64,000 nt of DNA, from NCBI RefSeq assembly GCF_030028105.1, contig NC_092377.1:68540569-68604568 (forward strand), written 5' to 3'. Under the pieces are notes generated by a model. The model worked only from the letters and a program-made list of their open reading frames with translations. It did no database searches and had not been told where the DNA came from. The position numbers and the translations under genes are program-made. This DNA comes from Mobula birostris (Eukaryota). Position 1 is the stretch's first letter; each line of letters starts with the position of its first letter. Of the stretch, positions 2,442-53,460 are shown piece by piece.

Positions 2442-2645
2442 CTGAGACCTGCATGAGGTAGACACGGGCACCATTGGCAGCAGCTCCACAAAGAAAGACA
2501 CCACTTAGTACAGCACAGAGTGAAGTCAAGCTTGCAGTAACATCTCCTCCTGCAGGATTTGTATAAATGGTATCGATAACCTTTCCAAGAAAGAATGGCG
2601 CAGACATGGTCACCATGCTGGACACACCTAAAAAGCTCACTGCAG
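2442..2645 (-). CDS. ABCB10: ABCB10 coding exon 2
   Basis: [31 protein letters not shown]...[15 protein letters not shown]. Acceptor ttctttctccag, donor G|GTGAAT. 204 nt, phase 1 to 1. Confidence 0.96.
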
Positions 2646-4749
2646 CTGGAGAAAGAACATAGTGCATGGCTTTAGATATCAGAGTTTGACTGGACTGCTA
2701 AGATAATGGAAGAGACTAACTGACATATTACAGAAAGCAAGTTTCAAAAGTAGACTAGGAGAAAACTCCAAATTCAACACATGTTCCTTAACCAATTCAG
2801 TAAAAAGTAATAAAATGAAAGAGAAAAACTTACCCCCCTCCCTCCGAGAGATAACTCTGGTGTGAATAGCCAATAGGTATCAGTTCTTTATACAAAGCTT
2901 AATCCAAGCTTCAAACTTTCCTCCAAAAAGCCATTAAGGTTTGAAGTGGAGAGGGCTCTTGGAGAAGGAACGTTAGTTTATTCTTTTCAAGTGAAAGTAT
3001 TAAAGTAGTTAGAAACCTGAAACAAATATATCATGATTCAATTTGTAGATCCAAATGGACTGCTCTTAGTTCCTAATACTCCCGTGGCACAAAGTTGTCA
3101 ATAAAACTAAGTTTCAAGGCAAACTGGTTATAGTTTGTCCTGAAACTTAATCAAGACTATGACAAATAAGAAAAAAAAAATCAGAAAACTCAAATAAAAT
3201 TTACTATGAGACATATAAAAACTGTGCTATTTTGTGTTCTCATTTCCATATTAAGAACTGAGTATTGTTTGAAAACTGAAAAGATTTACTGTCCTCAGAA
3301 AGTGGTAGCCAGAGCTTCTGTTACATATTCTACCAAATGCTCTCTCAAGCTGCAGTTGGAGATAAATAGCATGTTAGGGAAAGATATGAAGGGGTTTCAA
3401 GCCCTCTTATCACACTGCCACATGACATTTTCAAATTAACTGCAGCTCATGCACATGACTGGAAATTAGTATCAGTATTTGCTGAAAGTAGTGTGAGTTT
3501 TTCAAATCTTATATTCAATGTGCCTTAATGTGCTGTTTAGAAAAGAGCAGGGTTTTTAATGATTTATATCAAAAATGCTGCAAGTATATGGTAAAGCATG
3601 CATTGTCTATGAAGAAAAACAATTTCAAAGTTGCAATTAACCTGTTATCAAAAAAATTCAATAATTCTGTATTTTTTTCCTCAAGTTCACAATCAACATT
3701 TAAATTAATGGGATTATATTTTAATCTACATTTAAAATATCAATCAATACTCTAGTTCTTCTCAACCTGTTTCTATTAAACATAGTCACTGAAATTGGCT
3801 GAACTGAAGAAAAGCAGTAATTCAAAACAGGTGAATTCTGGTTTCTTCACCATTGCTCTCCAACAGCATCAAAGATCTTTTTAACCACTTATTTCCTTCT
3901 TTGTCTCAGAGAATTGTATATGGAAAAAACAAGTCGTCAACAGTTTACACAGCATAATAAACTTAAGGAAATGCTATCCCTAGACTGTCTTTGATGTCAA
4001 AAACAAACCACAAGGCTGAATTTCAAGGAGTTACAATCAGAACAAAACTAATCATAAACCAAAGGATTTCAAAGAGTAACTAAATGGGATCAGGCTACAT
4101 TGATAAAAGGGGTTTCGAAATAAATTACAGAAATAGTAATGAAAAACTGTTGACATGATTGCCAGTGAAGAGGCAGACCATGATTTAACCCAGACAGCAC
4201 AGTTGAAGACAGAACTCTTAAAGCTGGAGGAGGTGATTGGCAGATAGAGAGTTTAACAGACATCATAGTATTAACTAATTTGGACAAATATAACTCTGAA
4301 TTTGTAAATAGGATATTACAAAAATCATCAACCTGAGATATCGGAAGAGGTTATGAGCTTTGTAGACAGGTGTAGACCTTTGAAGAACCGATTGTGATAG
4401 TGAGAACAGATGCCACGGAGTCAGACTCGAGAGGAGGACCATTGCTGGATATTCTTAGGGTACAAATAAGTAAACTGAAGTACCCGGAAAAAGTTATTGC
4501 GAAGAATCCTATACTGGGGCTTTTGTTATACTGGGGGAAGGGAAAACCGAATTACAGACAAGACAGTTTTAGAGAAAGTGGATTTGAGGCGTGGAAATGA
4601 GGTATGGCTTGTCGATCAAAGTTGTTACGATTGGAATGAGAATGTCCTGGGTATGGGTATCGGCGACTTTGGGGAAAAATGTTAAATTTACCGATTCCTG
4701 ATCAGCACCACCCACTCCAAATCACCTGCAACTCAGGACTGTAATCCAA

Positions 4750-32654: not shown

Positions 32655-32823
32655 NNNNNNNNNNNNNNNNNNNNNNNNNNNNNNNNNNNNNNNNNNNNNN
32701 NNNNNNNNNNNNNNNNNNNNNNNNNNNNNNNNNNNNNNNNNNNNNNNNNNNNNNNNNNNNNNNNNNNNNNNNNNNNNNNNNNNNNNNNNNNNNNNNNNNN
32801 NNNNNNNNNNNNNNNNNNNNNNN
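32655..32823. other. Assembly gap (169 N)
   Basis: Run of n characters. Confidence 1.
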
Positions 32824-37778: not shown

Positions 37779-37949
37779 ATGGCTGATGTGGCCAGTAAGT
37801 CTTTGAGCGGCCTGCTGTTTGGCCTGGTTCAGATCACCTTTTACCGTAACCCTGCCGTTACCGAGCAGATGCTCAAGGATGAACTCTACCCCGAGCTATC
37901 AGAGCAAGATTTCCAAGTTCTGGTGGAGAAAATGAACGGTATCCTACGG
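37779..37949 (+). CDS. COMMD1: COMMD1 coding exon 1; later exons outside window
   Basis: MADVASKSLSGLLFGLVQITFY..EQMLKDELYPELSEQDFQVLVEKMNGILR resembles human KPLSGLLNALAQ..LYPEV..KMRGILK. Donor CGG|GTAGGT, phase 0. Divergent from CCT4 as in other vertebrates. Confidence 0.93.
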
Positions 37950-46365: not shown

Positions 46366-49311
46366 TGTTATGGCTTGTCATAACGATCAGCACCTTGTGG
46401 TCAGCTGACTTTCACTGATTCCTCGTTGTTCAGATCAAGAGCTCAATTGTTCTGGGGTAAAGTGTTTAAGTAGTCATACTGGGAAGTGAGAGTTTGGGTT
46501 GAGTTTTGAGTCTGGTGTAGTCTTCCAGAATTAAGGGTTATTTCAATCTCTAGCTTGTTCTATTGTCTGGCTTCAGGTCTCATCAGTAGGTATAGGCGAG
46601 TGAACACACCAAATTGGTAACAAGGTGCTGTATTATATCAACTTGGCAATTTCAGCAAAAGACTTGCACGTAATCCTGTAACAGAAGCAAGCTCAATTGA
46701 GGCTGCTAAGCTGAAGTTAATTAAAATGCTAACCAGCAGGTTGTCAGTGAGTTCAACTACATCAGTGTCAAACACTGAACAGGACTCATTTGAGTCGATT
46801 GTTGTGTACATTTCCAATTTACAGTTCGATGCTGCTTCGGAAGTTGTGTTTGAATTATGGTTTTAGCACTATGAAGATGTATTCTGTGTCCAGTTTGCCA
46901 GTAAAGTCGACTCCTGGAAAACATGCCCTTTGCTCTGAAGTGTTGGGTACTGCTGAACATGAATGCCATTTCAACTTCATTCTATTTAAGAACCTGTGGG
47001 ACTTAGCATTTGATGAAACTGACCAACAGCTAACAAGCATTTTTGGAGAGCAGCCATCTCTCATCAGTATAGGCTACCATTGTCTAAAACTTGATAAACA
47101 AGATGCCATTGACTTTATTACATGCACCAGTATTGTCAATCACAAATGTGAAAAGTTCAAGCTGGGTAACATGACTGAATTACTGTTCAAATGTCTGATT
47201 TTTTTTTTGTTTGTGCACTTAAAACACCTGCTGAGGCAGATATACATAAACTGCTCCTGGCCACACTGGAGCACAGCATTGATAAGATGCTATGAGCTGT
47301 TACTCAAGAATGTCAGCATTTGATCAACCTGAAACTCTATTCCAACAGACTAAGGTCAATGCAGTGTCTAGTTGCCCAGACATCATCACTCACCAGATCT
47401 ACAAGTGGCCAAACACAGCCTATTGGAACCGTGGTGCTTTGTATTATGCAAGAAAATGCAAATACAAGAAACACATTTGCAGTAAATGCCATTGCCATGG
47501 TCACAAAAAAGGCTTTTGCCATCCTTCACTGTGTTCAAGGCCAGTGCAGCAGAGAAGTCTATGGATAAATTGAGATGGAAGCCTTGGAAGTCATCTTTGC
47601 TGTGAAGAAGTTCAACAAGATGCTTAATGACAGACACTTCACCCTCACTGATCTCAAACCTGTGATGTTCATCTTCAGGTCAAAGAAAGCCATGCCAGTG
47701 TGTACAGCCAACTGTTGCAAAGGTGAGCAATGATATTATTTGCCTATGATTTTTAAATCAAATACACAACATTCCAGAAACTTGGTCAGGCAGATGACCT
47801 CTCCAGACTTGGGAACCAGCAGGTTACTGAAATTGAAGATGTTGCTGTGATTTCAATTGATTGAGGTCCTCCAGGTTGTTTCAGATGCTGCTGAAGGTCT
47901 TCCAGTCACAGGCAATAAAATCAGAGCAGAAACAGCTGCAGATCCTCTTCTTCAAAGTATCTCCAGATGCCTCATTAATGGATGGGCAGGCAAGGTTGAG
48001 GATGATGTTGTACCCTTCTGTCGCCGTCATGCATTGCTCTCTACTGTGGACTCTTGCCTAATGTTTGAAGAAAGAATAGCAATTCCACAAATACTTCAGA
48101 GTAAAAAAGTATGAAAACAATTCCACCGTGGTCAGCCAGGCATCAGAAGCTTTGTGTACTGGCCTAGTATAGACAAAGATACTACACCCATATGCAGGCA
48201 GTGTACTCAGTGCTCTGTGGCAGCAAAGAATCCAAGTAGAGCCAATCCACAACCATGGCCAAGGGGTACCAGACCTTGGAGTTGAGTGCATAATGACTTT
48301 GCTGGCCCAATCAACAGGTGTACCTACCCTGTCCCGGTTGAAACCTATTCCAAATGGCCAGAAGTACTATCTATCAAGTCAACAAATGACAGAGGCCACC
48401 ACTCAACAGCTGCTGCAGATCTTCAGCCACTTCGGGATGCTAGAAACAGTTGTTTCTAGCACTGGCACTCAATTTAGTTCACAGCAGTTTGCTGCAGTCT
48501 ACCAGAACACTGAAATTGTCCACATCTGCTCTCTCCCCGCCCCCCCCCCATATCATCCACAGTCTAACGGAGAGGTCTTGTGGTTACCTTCAAACTATTG
48601 CTTTTAAATCAAAGGGAAGGAGCATCGTCTGAGGCTCTCAACCCATTCCTACTGACAAATCAAACAACACCGCATCTGGGCCTTGAGGGGAAGTCTCCAG
48701 CTGAAGTGCTTTTGAGAAGAAGACTGCACAGTGTTGTTGTGGTACTGCTCTATGAAGTTATCATAGACAAATGTCACTGGTGACACCACATCAACCAGTT
48801 GTGGCCGCGTTCTCCCAAAAGCACCACAAGTTTGTTGGGCAGATGTTCAAACACAGAGCTGGACCTTCAACTCCTCCTGGAAGGGGTCAAATTACCCAAA
48901 CCAAACCTATCACCAGCGGTAAGCAATATCACAAGAAAGTGAGAGCCTGTAACTGCTAAGGAGGACTAATTTTCAGCATAAACGGGTCGTTTCATTCCAA
49001 GTCAACCCTTGGCTCAAATCTTACAAGTCATCATCTTCAAGAGGGAGGTGTTATGATGAGCCAAAACAATCATACCTAACAGCCAGCGGAAACCAATCCC
49101 AGGCTGACTTCCACTGGTTGTTGTTCCAGTCAAGGACTCGATTGTCTTGGATAAACCATTTAAATAGTCATTCTGCTGAGTGTGATTTTGGGTTGAGTTT
49201 TGAGACTAGTTTAGTTTTACTGAGCAAAGGGTCATTCATTTTGAATTCTATACATTTCTATTGTCTGTCTTTGAGTCTCATCAGTTGTTTAAGGCAAACG
49301 AACATGTCAAC
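46366..49311 (+). mobile_element. Gypsy LTR retrotransposon with both LTRs, internally deleted and decayed
   Basis: LTRs at about 46366-46612 and 49049-49311 both begin TGTTATG and share ttttgag(t/a)ct, tctattgtctg and gtctcatcagt. PBS-like ttggtaacaagg, PPT aagagggagg. Gag Zn knuckles, RNase H (AVKKFNKML..RHFTL) and integrase (HNDFAGP, PYHPQSNG) remnants. Confidence 0.88.
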
Positions 49312-49726
49312 GATGTAACAGTTTGGTGTTTTAATGACTGTATCATGTCCTGTTGAATTGGTTCTGCTCAAATATGGCATTTTATTTCTTTGCGTCTAGT
49401 TTACAACATGCACTTGACTGATTCAGTTGCACTTGAAGGAACATGAAATCAGAGCTAGTTCTTGTGTTAATGACACAACTAGGTGCAGAAATAAGCACCA
49501 GTTCTTTCAGTAATTTCAGTCCTTACTTGCTGCAACACTATATTGCCACCAGAGGTTCCCCATGTGCTTTGTAACAACGGCTGGAGTATTAATGCATTAT
49601 CTCTCATTGTAATTTACAACCACCCAAATACAGGCGTTTTAGCATTAGAATACTTTTTGTGATTACTTTCCACTTAATTTTAAATTGTACTACCTTGTAT
49701 CAGTGACAAATTGTAAACCGAAATTT

Positions 49727-50045
49727 TTGAAGATGCGGGTGAGGGGTCATTCCCTCCAACAAGCAATCAGGTCCTTGTCAAATGCAGCAGAAGAAAACAG
49801 CAATTGGATTTGGATTAAAAGGAAAGACAACAACTGGGCTGCAAGATGAAGACAGGAGGGTATGGAACTGAGGGGTGTGTATCTGGGAGGCCAGATAGCA
49901 CCTTTGAGCCCTCTGGAGACGTCGCGGGCTTATCAACGAAATGTCAAAGAAGGAGGGTGCCCACCTGATGACCCCGATGACGTACCTACCCTCCCTCCTT
50001 GTCACCACTCCAAGCCCACTGCCAACATCAAGAGTGCCGACTTAC
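49727..50045 (+). mobile_element. 3' end of a HERO-like (restriction-like endonuclease) non-LTR retrotransposon
   Basis: 49733-49849 reads MRVRGHSLQQAIRSLSNAAEENSNWIWIKRKDNNWAAR*, fitting the recalled C-terminal pattern G..L..AI..LS.AAE..S.W.W.KR. Followed by a GC-rich structured UTR. Confidence 0.68.
49908..49980 (+). ncRNA. Candidate permuted (pseudoknotted) hammerhead-like RNA
   Basis: GACG-TC 49918-49923 pairs with GAA-ATGTC 49938-49945. gcgggc 49924-49929 pairs with gcccac 49959-49964, immediately before CTGATGA 49965-49971. Confidence 0.55.
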
Positions 50046-52619
50046 CATAGGGATTGAAACATCAAGTCCTAGTAGCTCTACTACAGTGTCATGGTAGTTG
50101 CCAACTTTCATGGTAGTTTAAAAACTTTTCAAATGGTGCACAGGATTAGGTTAGGTGTGTGTTCATCCTGCACATGAAAACAGTTGTTGGGTAGTACACA
50201 ATTTGTTTTGGGCCTTTTTTTAAAATTGTGATTGGTACTTTTTGAGTTTGATATCACAAGCTCAAGTGAGTTTGCTCTTTGAGCCACATTTATTTGCTTA
50301 TTGATGTTCCTCCTGATATTTCTTTGACCTTCAGTTTTCAAATTTAAATGTTTCATAACCTAGCATTTACTTTGGTGAAGTGTAGAAGAGGTTATTAATT
50401 GCAAAATTGAGAGAACCAAGAGTGGTTTCCTGAGGGAAATATTTTCCCTCAGCCCTCAACACATAAACAAAAGAAAATGCTCAAAGCACAGAGGGTTAGG
50501 TAGCACAAGTGTGGGAGCAGAGTTAGTTTTTCTGGCCAATAATCCTTTGTCAGAACAAAAGAAGTGAACATTTCTGTATTGGAGAAACCTTTTGTGTAAC
50601 ATTTGAATGTTATACCGGAAACCTCTGTTTGGTCTGCAAAGGTAGGTTCAATTTGTGGTTGCTATTCATTTTAAGTCTCTGCCCCACTCTCACTCTGACC
50701 TCTGTTTTTAGCCTCCTATGTTGCTCTCATGATGCCCAATGTAAGCTTCCAGAACAGCATCTCATCACCTGTATAGATATTTTTAAACCTTCATGACTTA
50801 ATAGTGCATTTATCAATTTCAGACATGTGCAATAGGATGCATTTGAGTTTTTAATGGGAGTGACTTCTCAATTGTCTCCTGTTTTAGTAGTGGAATTGGC
50901 AATTAATTGCTCATTTCAGTGACAAAATGTTATTTTTTAAAAAATCTAATAGCATTGTATTTGAAATCCTTTGTACTTGACTTTCAGATTCAAACTATAA
51001 GGTGATTTATTTCAAAAGTGCTTGCAAAGTTACCTGATGGCAGCAATAGCATTACAATTGGAATCAAATGATTGTTAGTACATTATTAATAATTTTGGTG
51101 AATTAAAAATAGAAAATGCAATGTCTATTCAGTAGATCACTTAGCATTTAGTAAAATAACCAGGCATATCACCGATACAATTTGATGCAGGAATAGAACG
51201 AAGAGAGGCACCACAAAATTAACATTTAAGATCAAGATTCAAACTTAAATATCACATGTACATCAAAATATACGGTGAAATGCATAGTTTGCATTAACAG
51301 CAAGAAAATATTATCAATTTGAGGTACAATAAATGTTAGAGAAGTGTTTTGGATTGATGATAAAATGACACAAAATGCTCTCTTATAATAGTAGCCTTGC
51401 TTCTCTGTCCAATGTGTTAAGTATGTCAAGAAATTTCTAAATTGATTAATTTCAAATTGAAAGCATCATCAGTATTTAACTTGGGATTTATTCGTGTAGC
51501 AAAAAATAGCCACAGTACTTTCTGTTGGCATTATTATGAAATATCTTTAAGGATAAAAGCAGTAAATTTCATAATGGTACAAATCCTTAAAATGGCTGTG
51601 TTGTATTTGAGCCAACAAAATGGCTCATAATCTGCCTTTCTTGTATTACTAACTGATAAAATAAAATGCTGACTAACTCCTTTTTTGGCATAAAATATGC
51701 AGAAAACTATTATGTATTACATGAATATGATCTGAGTAATTGTCACAACCCATTTATGTTGCGGGGAGCTGTAATTTCAGTAAAGTTTCTTCTGTAGTTT
51801 CATTGTCCAAATTGTTCAGTCAGTTTGGGGCAGCAAAAATTAAGGGTCAGTGACATTTTTTTTCAAGCAAGGGATCCTGCTGGTCATGTTCCACTGCACT
51901 AGCTACCCTTTTCCTCCTTGGTCAGTTTTAAAAATCTGGCATTAGGTGTGGAATATTAATGAACATTAATTTTTCTGTCAACATTTATCATTAAGACTGC
52001 CAAGTTAAATATGGGACAAATGTGTTTATAGACCACACACCTTGTAATCTGCAACAAATCATATGAATTGAAATCCTATTTGTGTGCTGTAAACTTGTTA
52101 ACCTCCTCACTGTCCTCATGTCCTCAACCCATGATATTTACTATTTGGGCCTGGGGGTTCAAGACCATGATAGTGGGCTCTCTTATGCTCTCCAAATATA
52201 TTCATTTGTTGTTTTATGAATTAATTCATGAGTTCCTGGTCCTCAGTTAATTTATTATTAGTTTTCTGAATTGTTTAATTTTCTGTAGCTCTCCTCTGTT
52301 TAATACATATGAAAGATACTCTGTATATGTTTCATTAATTCACTGCTGACTAAACTGGATTACTGTGTTGATCTCTATTGTTTTGCACTTTGAGTTATGT
52401 AGACTTGATTGCTCGTGGCTTCTTACCTTTTTTAAAAAAAAGTTCTGTTTCGATATTTAATTTCTATCTTGTTACTATTGCAAATGATTGCACTATTATT
52501 ACTTCATTCTTAGGGAATTTTGCTTTTGGTTCATCAGTTCTGAACTCTGCAATGCCATGGGATGATGATGAGTATTCTTAAAAGGTACAGGCAACAAGCG
52601 TTTTTTTTTACAGAAATGG

Positions 52620-53460
52620 CATTTGGAGGCATACAGCATGGAAGTAGACCTTTGGCCCAACTACTCCATGCCAACCAAGGTTCCCATCAAAACTAGTCGC
52701 ACTTACATGTGTTTGGCCCATGTACCCCGTCCAAGTATCTTTTTAAATGTTATTAATGCACCTGCTTCAACAATTTCCTTTGGCAGCTCATATTCTATGC
52801 ACGGACTTCCTTCGGGGTGAAGAAGTTGCCTCTTGGGTTCTGTAAAATATTTTCCTCTGCTATTAAACCTGTGCTCACTACCTCTTGATTCTCCAACCCA
52901 GGGGAAAAAGGTGTGCATATCTATGCCCCTGATGATTTTATACACCTCGATAAGAGTCCCTCTCAGTCTCTACACTGCACTGAAGTCCCATGCTGTCTCC
53001 ATAACTCAGTCCCTTGAATCCTCTGAACTCAGTTGGGCAAAATAGATTCTCTGCATTCTTTTCGGCTTCGTAGATTCTCTACCAGGCTGACCAAAACTGA
53101 ACACTATATTCCAGATGTGGCCTCACCAGTATCTTATGCAAATGCAGTATTACATCCCAATGTGTACTCCGAGCCCAGACTGATGCACGTCAAAGGCCTC
53201 CATGTTTATCTGATACACCACTTTCAGGGAACCATGGACTTGTATTCTTAGGTTGCTCTGTTCAACAACACTCCCTAGATCCTGACCAGTTGTTGTGAAA
53301 GTCTACCCTCATTTTGTCTTTCCAAAATGCAGAGTCTCACACTATCTAAATTAAGTTGTTTTTGTTATTCCTCACCTGCTTATCCAGCTGATAACAATCT
53401 TCTCTGTCAGTGACACCACCTATTTTAGTATCATCTGCAAGCTTACTAACTATCCTTAAT
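52620..53460 (-). mobile_element. Old CR1 3' fragment
   Basis: ORF 52703-52945 MYKIIRGID..ESRGSEHRF..ELPKEIVEAGALITFKK. Confidence 0.72.

Follow-up and report, generated by a model that had tools for sequence, protein, structure and literature searches.

What does a hammerhead-like core do in the 3' UTR of a retroelement remnant, and how could its parts work together in an order that no circular permutation of the hammerhead produces? The locus that raises this question lies in a 64,000-nt stretch of the Mobula birostris genome (the window, to which all coordinates refer), where an earlier reading of the letters, here termed the original prediction, had proposed a rearranged, pseudoknotted hammerhead at 49872-49995. 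The motifs on which it relied are all present letter for letter: GACGTC at 49918-23, GCGGGC at 49924-29, GAAATGTC at 49938-45, GCCCAC at 49959-64 and CTGATGA at 49965-71, together with a perfect hairpin at 49880-97 and a helix of 49908-14 with 49952-58, behind an ORF stop codon at 49847-49. Stem III does form five pairs in the window copy, one of them G-U, and stem I five of its six. A closing stem, 49855-75 with 49972-94, is also present, beyond the helices originally listed. The segment 49872-49995 alone folds no better than its shuffles (z -1.02); the wider segment 49850-49998 folds better than shuffles (z -2.94, 0/200), and the outer part of the closing stem, the P1 helix, is present in its computed fold.

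The genomic setting is much as had been supposed. The fold belongs to a 5'-truncated copy of a HERO-like non-LTR retrotransposon (R2-group, with reverse transcriptase and restriction-like endonuclease) at 49729..50082 on the plus strand, whose 3' end is fixed at about 50077-50082 without poly(A). The final 38 codons of the element ORF and its stop occupy 49733..49849 (plus strand), the same C-terminus being found in longer copies, and the fold sits behind this stop, in the 3' UTR of the remnant. It lies sense within a COMMD1 intron, on the plus strand between two COMMD1_N Pfam matches: the N-terminal coding exon of the host gene at 37791..37949 (plus strand; PF17221, E 2.8e-9), and a second match some 53 kb beyond the first, past the end of the window. 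Just upstream of the HERO-like copy, at about 48170-49080, are open frames resembling what is presumably the remnant of an LTR-retrotransposon integrase. The sole run of N in the window (32655-32823, 169 letters) is far from the ribozyme-like fold.

The element is a large dispersed family. A first look at the 4.0-Gb genome gave 1579 candidate copies, and exact matches to element words of 16 and 17 letters numbered 662 and 813, respectively. As in the R2 group, copies share a fixed 3' end and are variably truncated at the 5' end, and long copies of the unit (about 3865 nt) encode in one ORF a reverse transcriptase, then a CCHC zinc knuckle, then a PD..(D/E)xK-type restriction-like nuclease. RVT_1 was detected in element copies and relatives, and the protein alignment holds conserved C, C, H and D, E, K columns, which we take to be the zinc knuckle and the restriction-like nuclease. 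R2 proteins are the best matches among solved structures (PDB) for a full-length close relative, and named relatives come from teleosts, lamprey, sturgeon, amphioxus and bivalves. At most a minority of copies have a target-site duplication, shared flank words of at least 7 letters being found in 6/54 copies against 3% of shuffles. The accessible portions of PMC4640811 and PMC3636483 describe the HERO clade as dispersed elements with no fixed gene target and a single ORF, in which the reverse transcriptase precedes a zinc knuckle and a restriction-like endonuclease; this domain order and the dispersal are common to HERO and the present element. The label HERO-like fits, as a label drawn from domain order and dispersal rather than from comparison with named HERO sequences. 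The literature searched contained no description of a ribozyme, a terminal repeat or a tandem form in HERO, in contrast to the present element, which has the fold and tandem copies. We also note that near-identical copies cluster at about 35-54 Mb of one contig (G000:C12), probably via segmental duplication, and that polymorphic sites within unit positions 2558-3797 of long copies show little linkage, giving a mosaic look, as from frequent template switching.

The order of the blocks in the fold has a precedent. Eckert et al. (2023, PMC10085705) defined six permutations of the hammerhead, assuming that its blocks S, G and C are uninterrupted, so the original prediction was right that non-circular permutations had been reported, and the order found here is that of their type SGC. 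The order S, G, C is seen, but a stem II strand directly after CUGANGA is not. The original prediction had placed stem II there, pairing ttatc with gatga and naming this helix as its weak point, and this part of it fails: the 10.1-11.1 pair forms in 0/30 aligned sequences and 3/39 motifs of the relatives described below, and the helix as a whole is paired at the level of shuffles (48.0% against 45.9%). A plain type-SGC hammerhead with its stem II partner after CUGANGA, as blocks S and G and the CUGANGA letters in SGC order might have led one to expect, is thereby refuted, and we assign it a negligible probability.

Another partner for stem II is at hand. Position 49903 is G in 91/115 genomic copies, and this letter makes 49903-07 a perfect partner of 49933-37, which places the second strand of stem II upstream of the cleavage block. 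P1 then pairs 49972-75 with 49872-75, and the hairpin 49876-49902 exactly fills the gap that remains. From 5' to 3' the order becomes P1, P2, II, 'I', III, NUH, I, II, GAAA, III, 'I', I, CUGANGA, P1. Instead of A9 being joined directly (or via 1-2 letters) to 10.1, a P1/P2 junction is found between them; the CUGANGA block is thus interrupted after A9, and a four-way junction spans the gap to G10.1.

Piece by piece, all on the plus strand, the fold opens with the 5' strand of the outer closing stem P1 at 49855..49869 (49855-62 with 49987-94 and 49864-68 with 49982-86, given family alleles, in the computed fold). The GA of a predicted kink-turn follows at 49870..49871, acting together with a 3-nt bulge at 49976-78 and a GA at 49979-80, and then the 5' strand of inner P1 at 49872..49875, whose partner 49972-75 comes directly after A9. 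The hairpin P2 (49876..49902, including the hairpin 49880-97) would stack on P1 and ends directly before G10.1; its first position, 49876, is mutated in the window copy. The stem II strand with position 10.1, which is T in the window, is at 49903..49907, and 49908..49914 pairs with 49952-58 in a helix that links stems II and I at their far ends and corresponds to the 'I' interaction of type SGC. Block S (49918..49929) consists of a stem III strand (49918-22), H17 (C49923, after which the cut is predicted) and a stem I strand (49924-29). Block G (49933..49945) holds a stem II strand (49933-37), G12-A13-A14 (49938-40) and a stem III strand (49941-45). The stretch 49952..49975 carries the second 'I' strand (49952-58), the second stem I strand (49959-64), CUGAUGA (49965-71) and the P1 strand 49972-75, and is followed by the kink-turn bulge and the 3' strand of the outer closing stem (49976..49994). 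The 3' tail of the element, 49995..50082, runs into the element 5' UTR without added letters in more-than-unit copies.

The pattern closing P1 (49864-49872 with 49972-49986), a predicted kink-turn, recurs in the relatives L040, L042, L044 and L081 with different flanking pairs. It is limited to a fish-like subgroup, most other relatives having a plain P1 of 9-12 pairs. A kink-turn could recruit an L7Ae-family protein.

How much of this fold survives in the window copy is best judged against its genomic family. Between 49850 and 50000 the window departs from the commonest letter of 116 distinct copies at six positions: 49876, 49889, 49895, 49903, 49925 and 49942. Family letters restore both stem I and stem III, as had been guessed. 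The further suggestion that both defects reflect CpG decay is borne out at 49942 (82 C and 30 T among the 116 copies) and not at 49925, a private T-to-C change where T is found in 115/116. More damaging than these stem I and stem III defects are the changes at 49903, which turns G10.1 to U, and at 49876. We therefore regard the window copy as a short fossil, probably crippled by its G10.1 to U change, and the COMMD1 pre-mRNA need not be acted on by it. Genomic copies keep the whole core in 71/111 cases and all 31 core-proximal pairs in 21, counts that are inflated, 90 of the sampled loci having been picked by exact match over 49926-41.

Distant relatives carry the case for the fold. A metagenome scan with the C-terminal protein alignment confirmed 356 loci, the best 80 of which, at 34-76% protein identity, were examined. 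A strict, fixed-length parser, for which stems III and I, the upstream stem II, the 'I' helix, P1, P2 and a gap-free junction were all required, accepted 44 of the best 80 (40 of the 62 having at least 250 nt downstream) and 0/530 shuffles in which the core letters were held fixed. Among the 36 without a strict parse, 14 have less than 250 nt downstream. Several of the other 22 (L038, L039, L043, L052, L072, L083 and L093) fit if a bulge, a variant of the core or a more distant position is allowed; no motif was found in L089, L097 or L114, and several more look decayed. Viral contigs gave 20 pattern matches and 0 relatives.

Some parse was obtained for 54 loci; with redundancy removed these gave 45 motifs, which were aligned by sequence alone, blind to structure (mean identity 49%). 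Against 200 tree simulations, 12 of 6555 column pairs reached E <= 0.01, and 12/12 are pairs of the proposed fold: three in stem I, three in the upstream stem II, one in III, four in P1 and one in the 'I' helix. The next five ranked pairs are proposed pairs too, P2 among them, none of them significant. Six helices (P1, P2, II, the I-II helix, III and I) are thus shown to covary, P2 being below significance against the tree null. In a second alignment of 30 sequences (29 of the 45 motifs, selected for similar length, and the window), the named structure has 88.6% of its cells paired, against 61.0% when shuffled and 34.5-43.2% when slid, and 36/40 proposed pairs show both-sided changes. The 'I' helix that brings stems I and II together is 89.5% paired, with both-sided change in 5/6 pairs, and the P1/P2 junction has no unpaired letter in 30 of the 39 motifs with a full upstream stem II. 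Thermodynamic folding of these 39 finds P1 in 31 and P2 in 32, and finds II, III, 'I' and I only in some, because the method has no pseudoknots. Once relatives are used, then, the fold is far above chance, with core letters conserved and compensatory changes found.

Some relatives deserve mention in their own right. In L058, L059, L060, L063 and similar loci the last codons overlap the P1 5' strand and the stop codon lies in P2. After the ORF, L112 and L113 keep P1, GAAA and CUGANGA and have no cleavage block S, the deletion spanning the predicted cut. In L110 an extra CUGANGA word stands about 25 nt past the point where the ORF match ends; a complete motif, its linkers longer, follows downstream.

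Is the conserved fold a hammerhead? In the 45 motifs the core positions (C3 U4 G5 A6 N7 G8 A9, G12 A13 A14 and A15.1-U16.1) are matched in 42-45/45 per position, a conservation that is partly built in, as the motifs were chosen by a core-demanding parser with one mismatch allowed. H17 is U, C or A, not G, in 54/55 parses by a parser that had no such rule, as expected of a NUH site; N7 varies freely, position 10.1 is G in 39/39, and A15.1-U16.1 is invariant. Stems I, II and III flank this core with covariation, stem II only via its upstream partner. U3 occurs together with A8 in the complete folds of L072 and L093 and in the partly deleted fold of L050, and L043 and L044 have U3 with G8; the U3-A8 swap is natural and active in hammerheads, according to the available part of PMC3088659. 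Known hammerheads also tolerate an unpaired letter at the 5' end of stem II (PMC4209133, in the portion available), which implies that the A9-G10.1 backbone step tolerates change, and we infer that the A9-G10.1 bond can give way to a four-way junction with no distortion of the site. We hold with high confidence that the hammerhead-type fold is real and that its topology is well supported. Judging from its letters, self-cleavage by intact copies is likely: with P1 and P2 stacked end to end, A9 would in good probability be held beside G10.1, giving a normal active site and a cut after H17 (C49923).

The split core is a seventh arrangement, outside the six permutations of PMC10085705. It shares with type SGC the cyclic S-G-C order, the short linker between stems I and II, the helix joining the far ends of these stems, the core letters and the pseudoknot. 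It differs in that block C is interrupted, with the 10.1 strand upstream and P1 after A9, so that the SGC cycle is opened inside block C, and in that all three inter-block links are closed. Type-SGC ribozymes (HRIMA-1 and variants) were obtained from metatranscriptomes only, none from the genomes of known organisms (PMC10085705), and have been shown to cleave, whereas the present form occurs in animal DNA retroelements with its cleavage predicted from sequence. The search pattern of that study, as far as its accessible part describes it, requires stem II directly after CUGAUGA and hence could not find the split-core form. Rfam, likewise, gave no hammerhead match at E 10 in window positions 47000-53000 and none at the gathering score at 9 loci. 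In the freely accessible literature searched, we found no link between HERO and the hammerhead and no core split at A9/G10.1. The portion of PMC13725137 available mentions hammerhead variants with additional helices without detail, and a term search of the available part of PMC10162972, which it cites, gave no helix-bearing hammerhead variants.

What the ribozyme would do must be read from the record of inserted copies. Full-length copies (L034:2706-2910 and loci L207-L230) open with a stretch, variable in length, that repeats their own 3' end, an LTR-like repeat in a non-LTR element. In a sample of 30 loci fetched by a 5' UTR query, 25 reach the start of the 5' UTR, and 23 of these 25 continue into the element's own 3' end, for 28 to over 1490 nt (20/22 with four near-identical loci counted once). 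The flanks of the 23 are unrelated, except in those four. The joint is without added letters in 23/23, with short deletions at or near it in three. Self-insertion was rejected as the cause of the tandems, an element end lying upstream of only 1/54 truncated copies. Among metagenome loci with 900 nt downstream, the element N-terminus follows the 3' UTR in 16/35, one of them a short doubtful match, and such tandems may be assembly joins of repeats. On one contig, L053 and L065 are elements 70% alike, head to tail about 3.7 kb apart, either a true mixed tandem or an assembly join. At the 3' ends of L117-L206 the last five element letters often recur, in full or in part, at the junction, and a few copies extend some letters into the sequence of the 5' UTR, which suggests renewed priming on a template extending beyond the start point.

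Head-to-tail, more-than-unit copies with a ribozyme in the repeat, here a predicted one, are also the mode of Penelope-like elements and retrozymes. The portions of PMC4209133, PMC6765202 and bioRxiv 10.64898/2026.07.22.740005 available describe a hammerhead in the terminal repeat of these elements, such head-to-tail copies, and a circular RNA proposed as template. Their hammerheads, in the same sources, are minimal type I motifs acting as dimers, and the Penelope-like elements have a telomerase-like reverse transcriptase and a GIY-YIG nuclease; unlike them, the present fold is a monomeric six-helix structure in an R2-group element with a restriction-like nuclease. The HDV-like ribozymes of R2, L1Tc and RTE resemble it in being self-cleaving RNAs, here a predicted one, on a non-LTR retrotransposon, and differ in ribozyme class, in their position at the element 5' end and in acting in release from a co-transcript (PMC6765202, in part); the present fold is in the 3' UTR, and inserted copies span its cut site.

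A release function of that kind deserves consideration all the same. In tandem copies the ribozyme stands about 160 nt upstream of the next unit start, so that one in the upstream partial repeat might free the downstream unit from host read-through transcripts as a linear RNA beginning at the cut site, much as the HDV-like ribozyme of R2 does, and release is the usual role of retroelement ribozymes in the accessible part of PMC6765202. If it were so, 5' ends should accumulate at 49924 and none should lie past it, but in the second laps (the four near-identical loci taken as one, plus five further loci) 0/25 ends fall within 10 nt of the cut and 14/25 pass the ribozyme again. We consider this reading very improbable; for insertion templates it is largely refuted, and it could still hold for translated RNA.

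The cut site has left no footprint in the wider genomic sample either. Of 169 distinct segments, 155 span it; the 10-nt bin that holds it contains one 5' end and zero 3' ends, and its indels do not exceed the background level. Smaller sets of 90 and 30 segments likewise gave neither a pile-up of copy ends nor indel scars. Every long copy examined came from RNA that was intact at the predicted cut bond. This absence, and the loss of block S in L112 and L113, would suit a fold that does not cleave at all, a hammerhead descendant or mimic that serves as a 3' UTR handle bound by the element protein to start reverse transcription. R2-group proteins bind their RNA in this region. Against it, the conserved and free positions (H17, N7, A15.1-U16.1 and G10.1) match the hammerhead active site in detail, the U3-A8 swap keeps the active-site pair, and helices seemingly at odds with the ribozyme rebuild it once block C is allowed to split; we regard a handle as decidedly unlikely.

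If the intact ribozyme does cut, the products would still be joined by 16-33 base pairs, as computed from the pairing. The cut would then be a clamped nick, favouring re-ligation or read-through by the reverse transcriptase. We suggest, as the best of the readings considered, though tentatively and a little short of even confidence, that the conserved hammerhead-type fold in HERO-like 3' UTRs cuts and rejoins element RNA in its intact copies. More-than-unit transcripts hold two ribozymes and may be cut to unit length and joined end to end; joining to self would give circles, and joining to another element RNA concatemers; reverse transcription, starting internally at the fixed 3' point and running for more than one lap, would regenerate the tandem form. 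Taken jointly, these three steps have in our judgement a somewhat less than even chance of being right. Cleavage by a hammerhead, circularisation and more-than-unit reverse transcription have been proposed for such a tandem pattern in Penelope-like elements (PMC4209133, in the part available). It counts against this model that a circle could form only if two ribozymes, each tightly clamped, exchanged strands, a step for which we can offer no mechanism.

The tandems themselves constrain the form that such joining may take. At the single strict polymorphic site, the 5' repeat agrees with the 3' end of the same copy in 8/11 cases and differs in 3/11, a comparison of little power, and in L249 the two differ at 5/13 sites. 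At least some tandems hence combine unlike variants of the element. This would require that separate molecules be joined, that the reverse transcriptase jump from one to another, or that mixed tandems be transcribed as linear RNA, and it speaks in part against a strict one-molecule circle.

Jumps between molecules, which unlike tandem halves would fit, are part of a further alternative, in which the ribozyme is active as a switch or checkpoint. Ribosomes at the stop codon, or the new protein bound in cis, would keep it unfolded, and uncaptured RNA would cut itself and be lost; tandems would arise separately, when the reverse transcriptase jumps from the 5' end of an RNA to a 3' end via a shared five-letter overlap at the joint. 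A stop codon inside the 5' strands of P1, P2 or II in 16/39 motifs, and at most 30 nt upstream in 12 more, suits such coupling to translation, as does the origin of all inserted copies from uncut or rejoined RNA suit the switch. The R2 reverse transcriptase reportedly copies across non-continuous templates. The switch nevertheless requires about nine in ten full-length cDNAs to jump, never with added letters, where only 2/25 loci start at or near the joint, and it leaves the 16-33 pairs kept across the cut unexplained. We think it unlikely, if a serious competitor to cutting and rejoining.

Taken together, these observations bear on both the hammerhead and the elements that carry it. A core divided between A9 and G10.1 runs counter to the stated rule that the hammerhead blocks are never interrupted, and accounts for the failure of pattern searches and Rfam to find RNAs of this kind. 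Non-circular permutations, previously from metatranscriptome contigs without assignment, are thereby placed in the genomes of vertebrates and invertebrates; the present genome alone holds hundreds of copies, and dozens of natural variants are ready for testing. With 16-33 pairs to hold its products together, such a ribozyme is a natural candidate for making RNA circular, and if element RNA is cut and rejoined, the head-to-tail run of full-length copies into their own 3' end would have an explanation. In its widest form, which we hold more doubtfully than the cutting and rejoining itself, the proposal is that a seventh hammerhead topology may be a standing part of an animal LINE clade, making RNA circles or concatemers, in an autonomous R2-group element that would replicate by rolling, more-than-unit reverse transcription. 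For HERO-like elements, which are candidate genome-writing tools, this would mean an RNA component not recognised before and an explanation, open to test, of the head-to-tail form of their copies.
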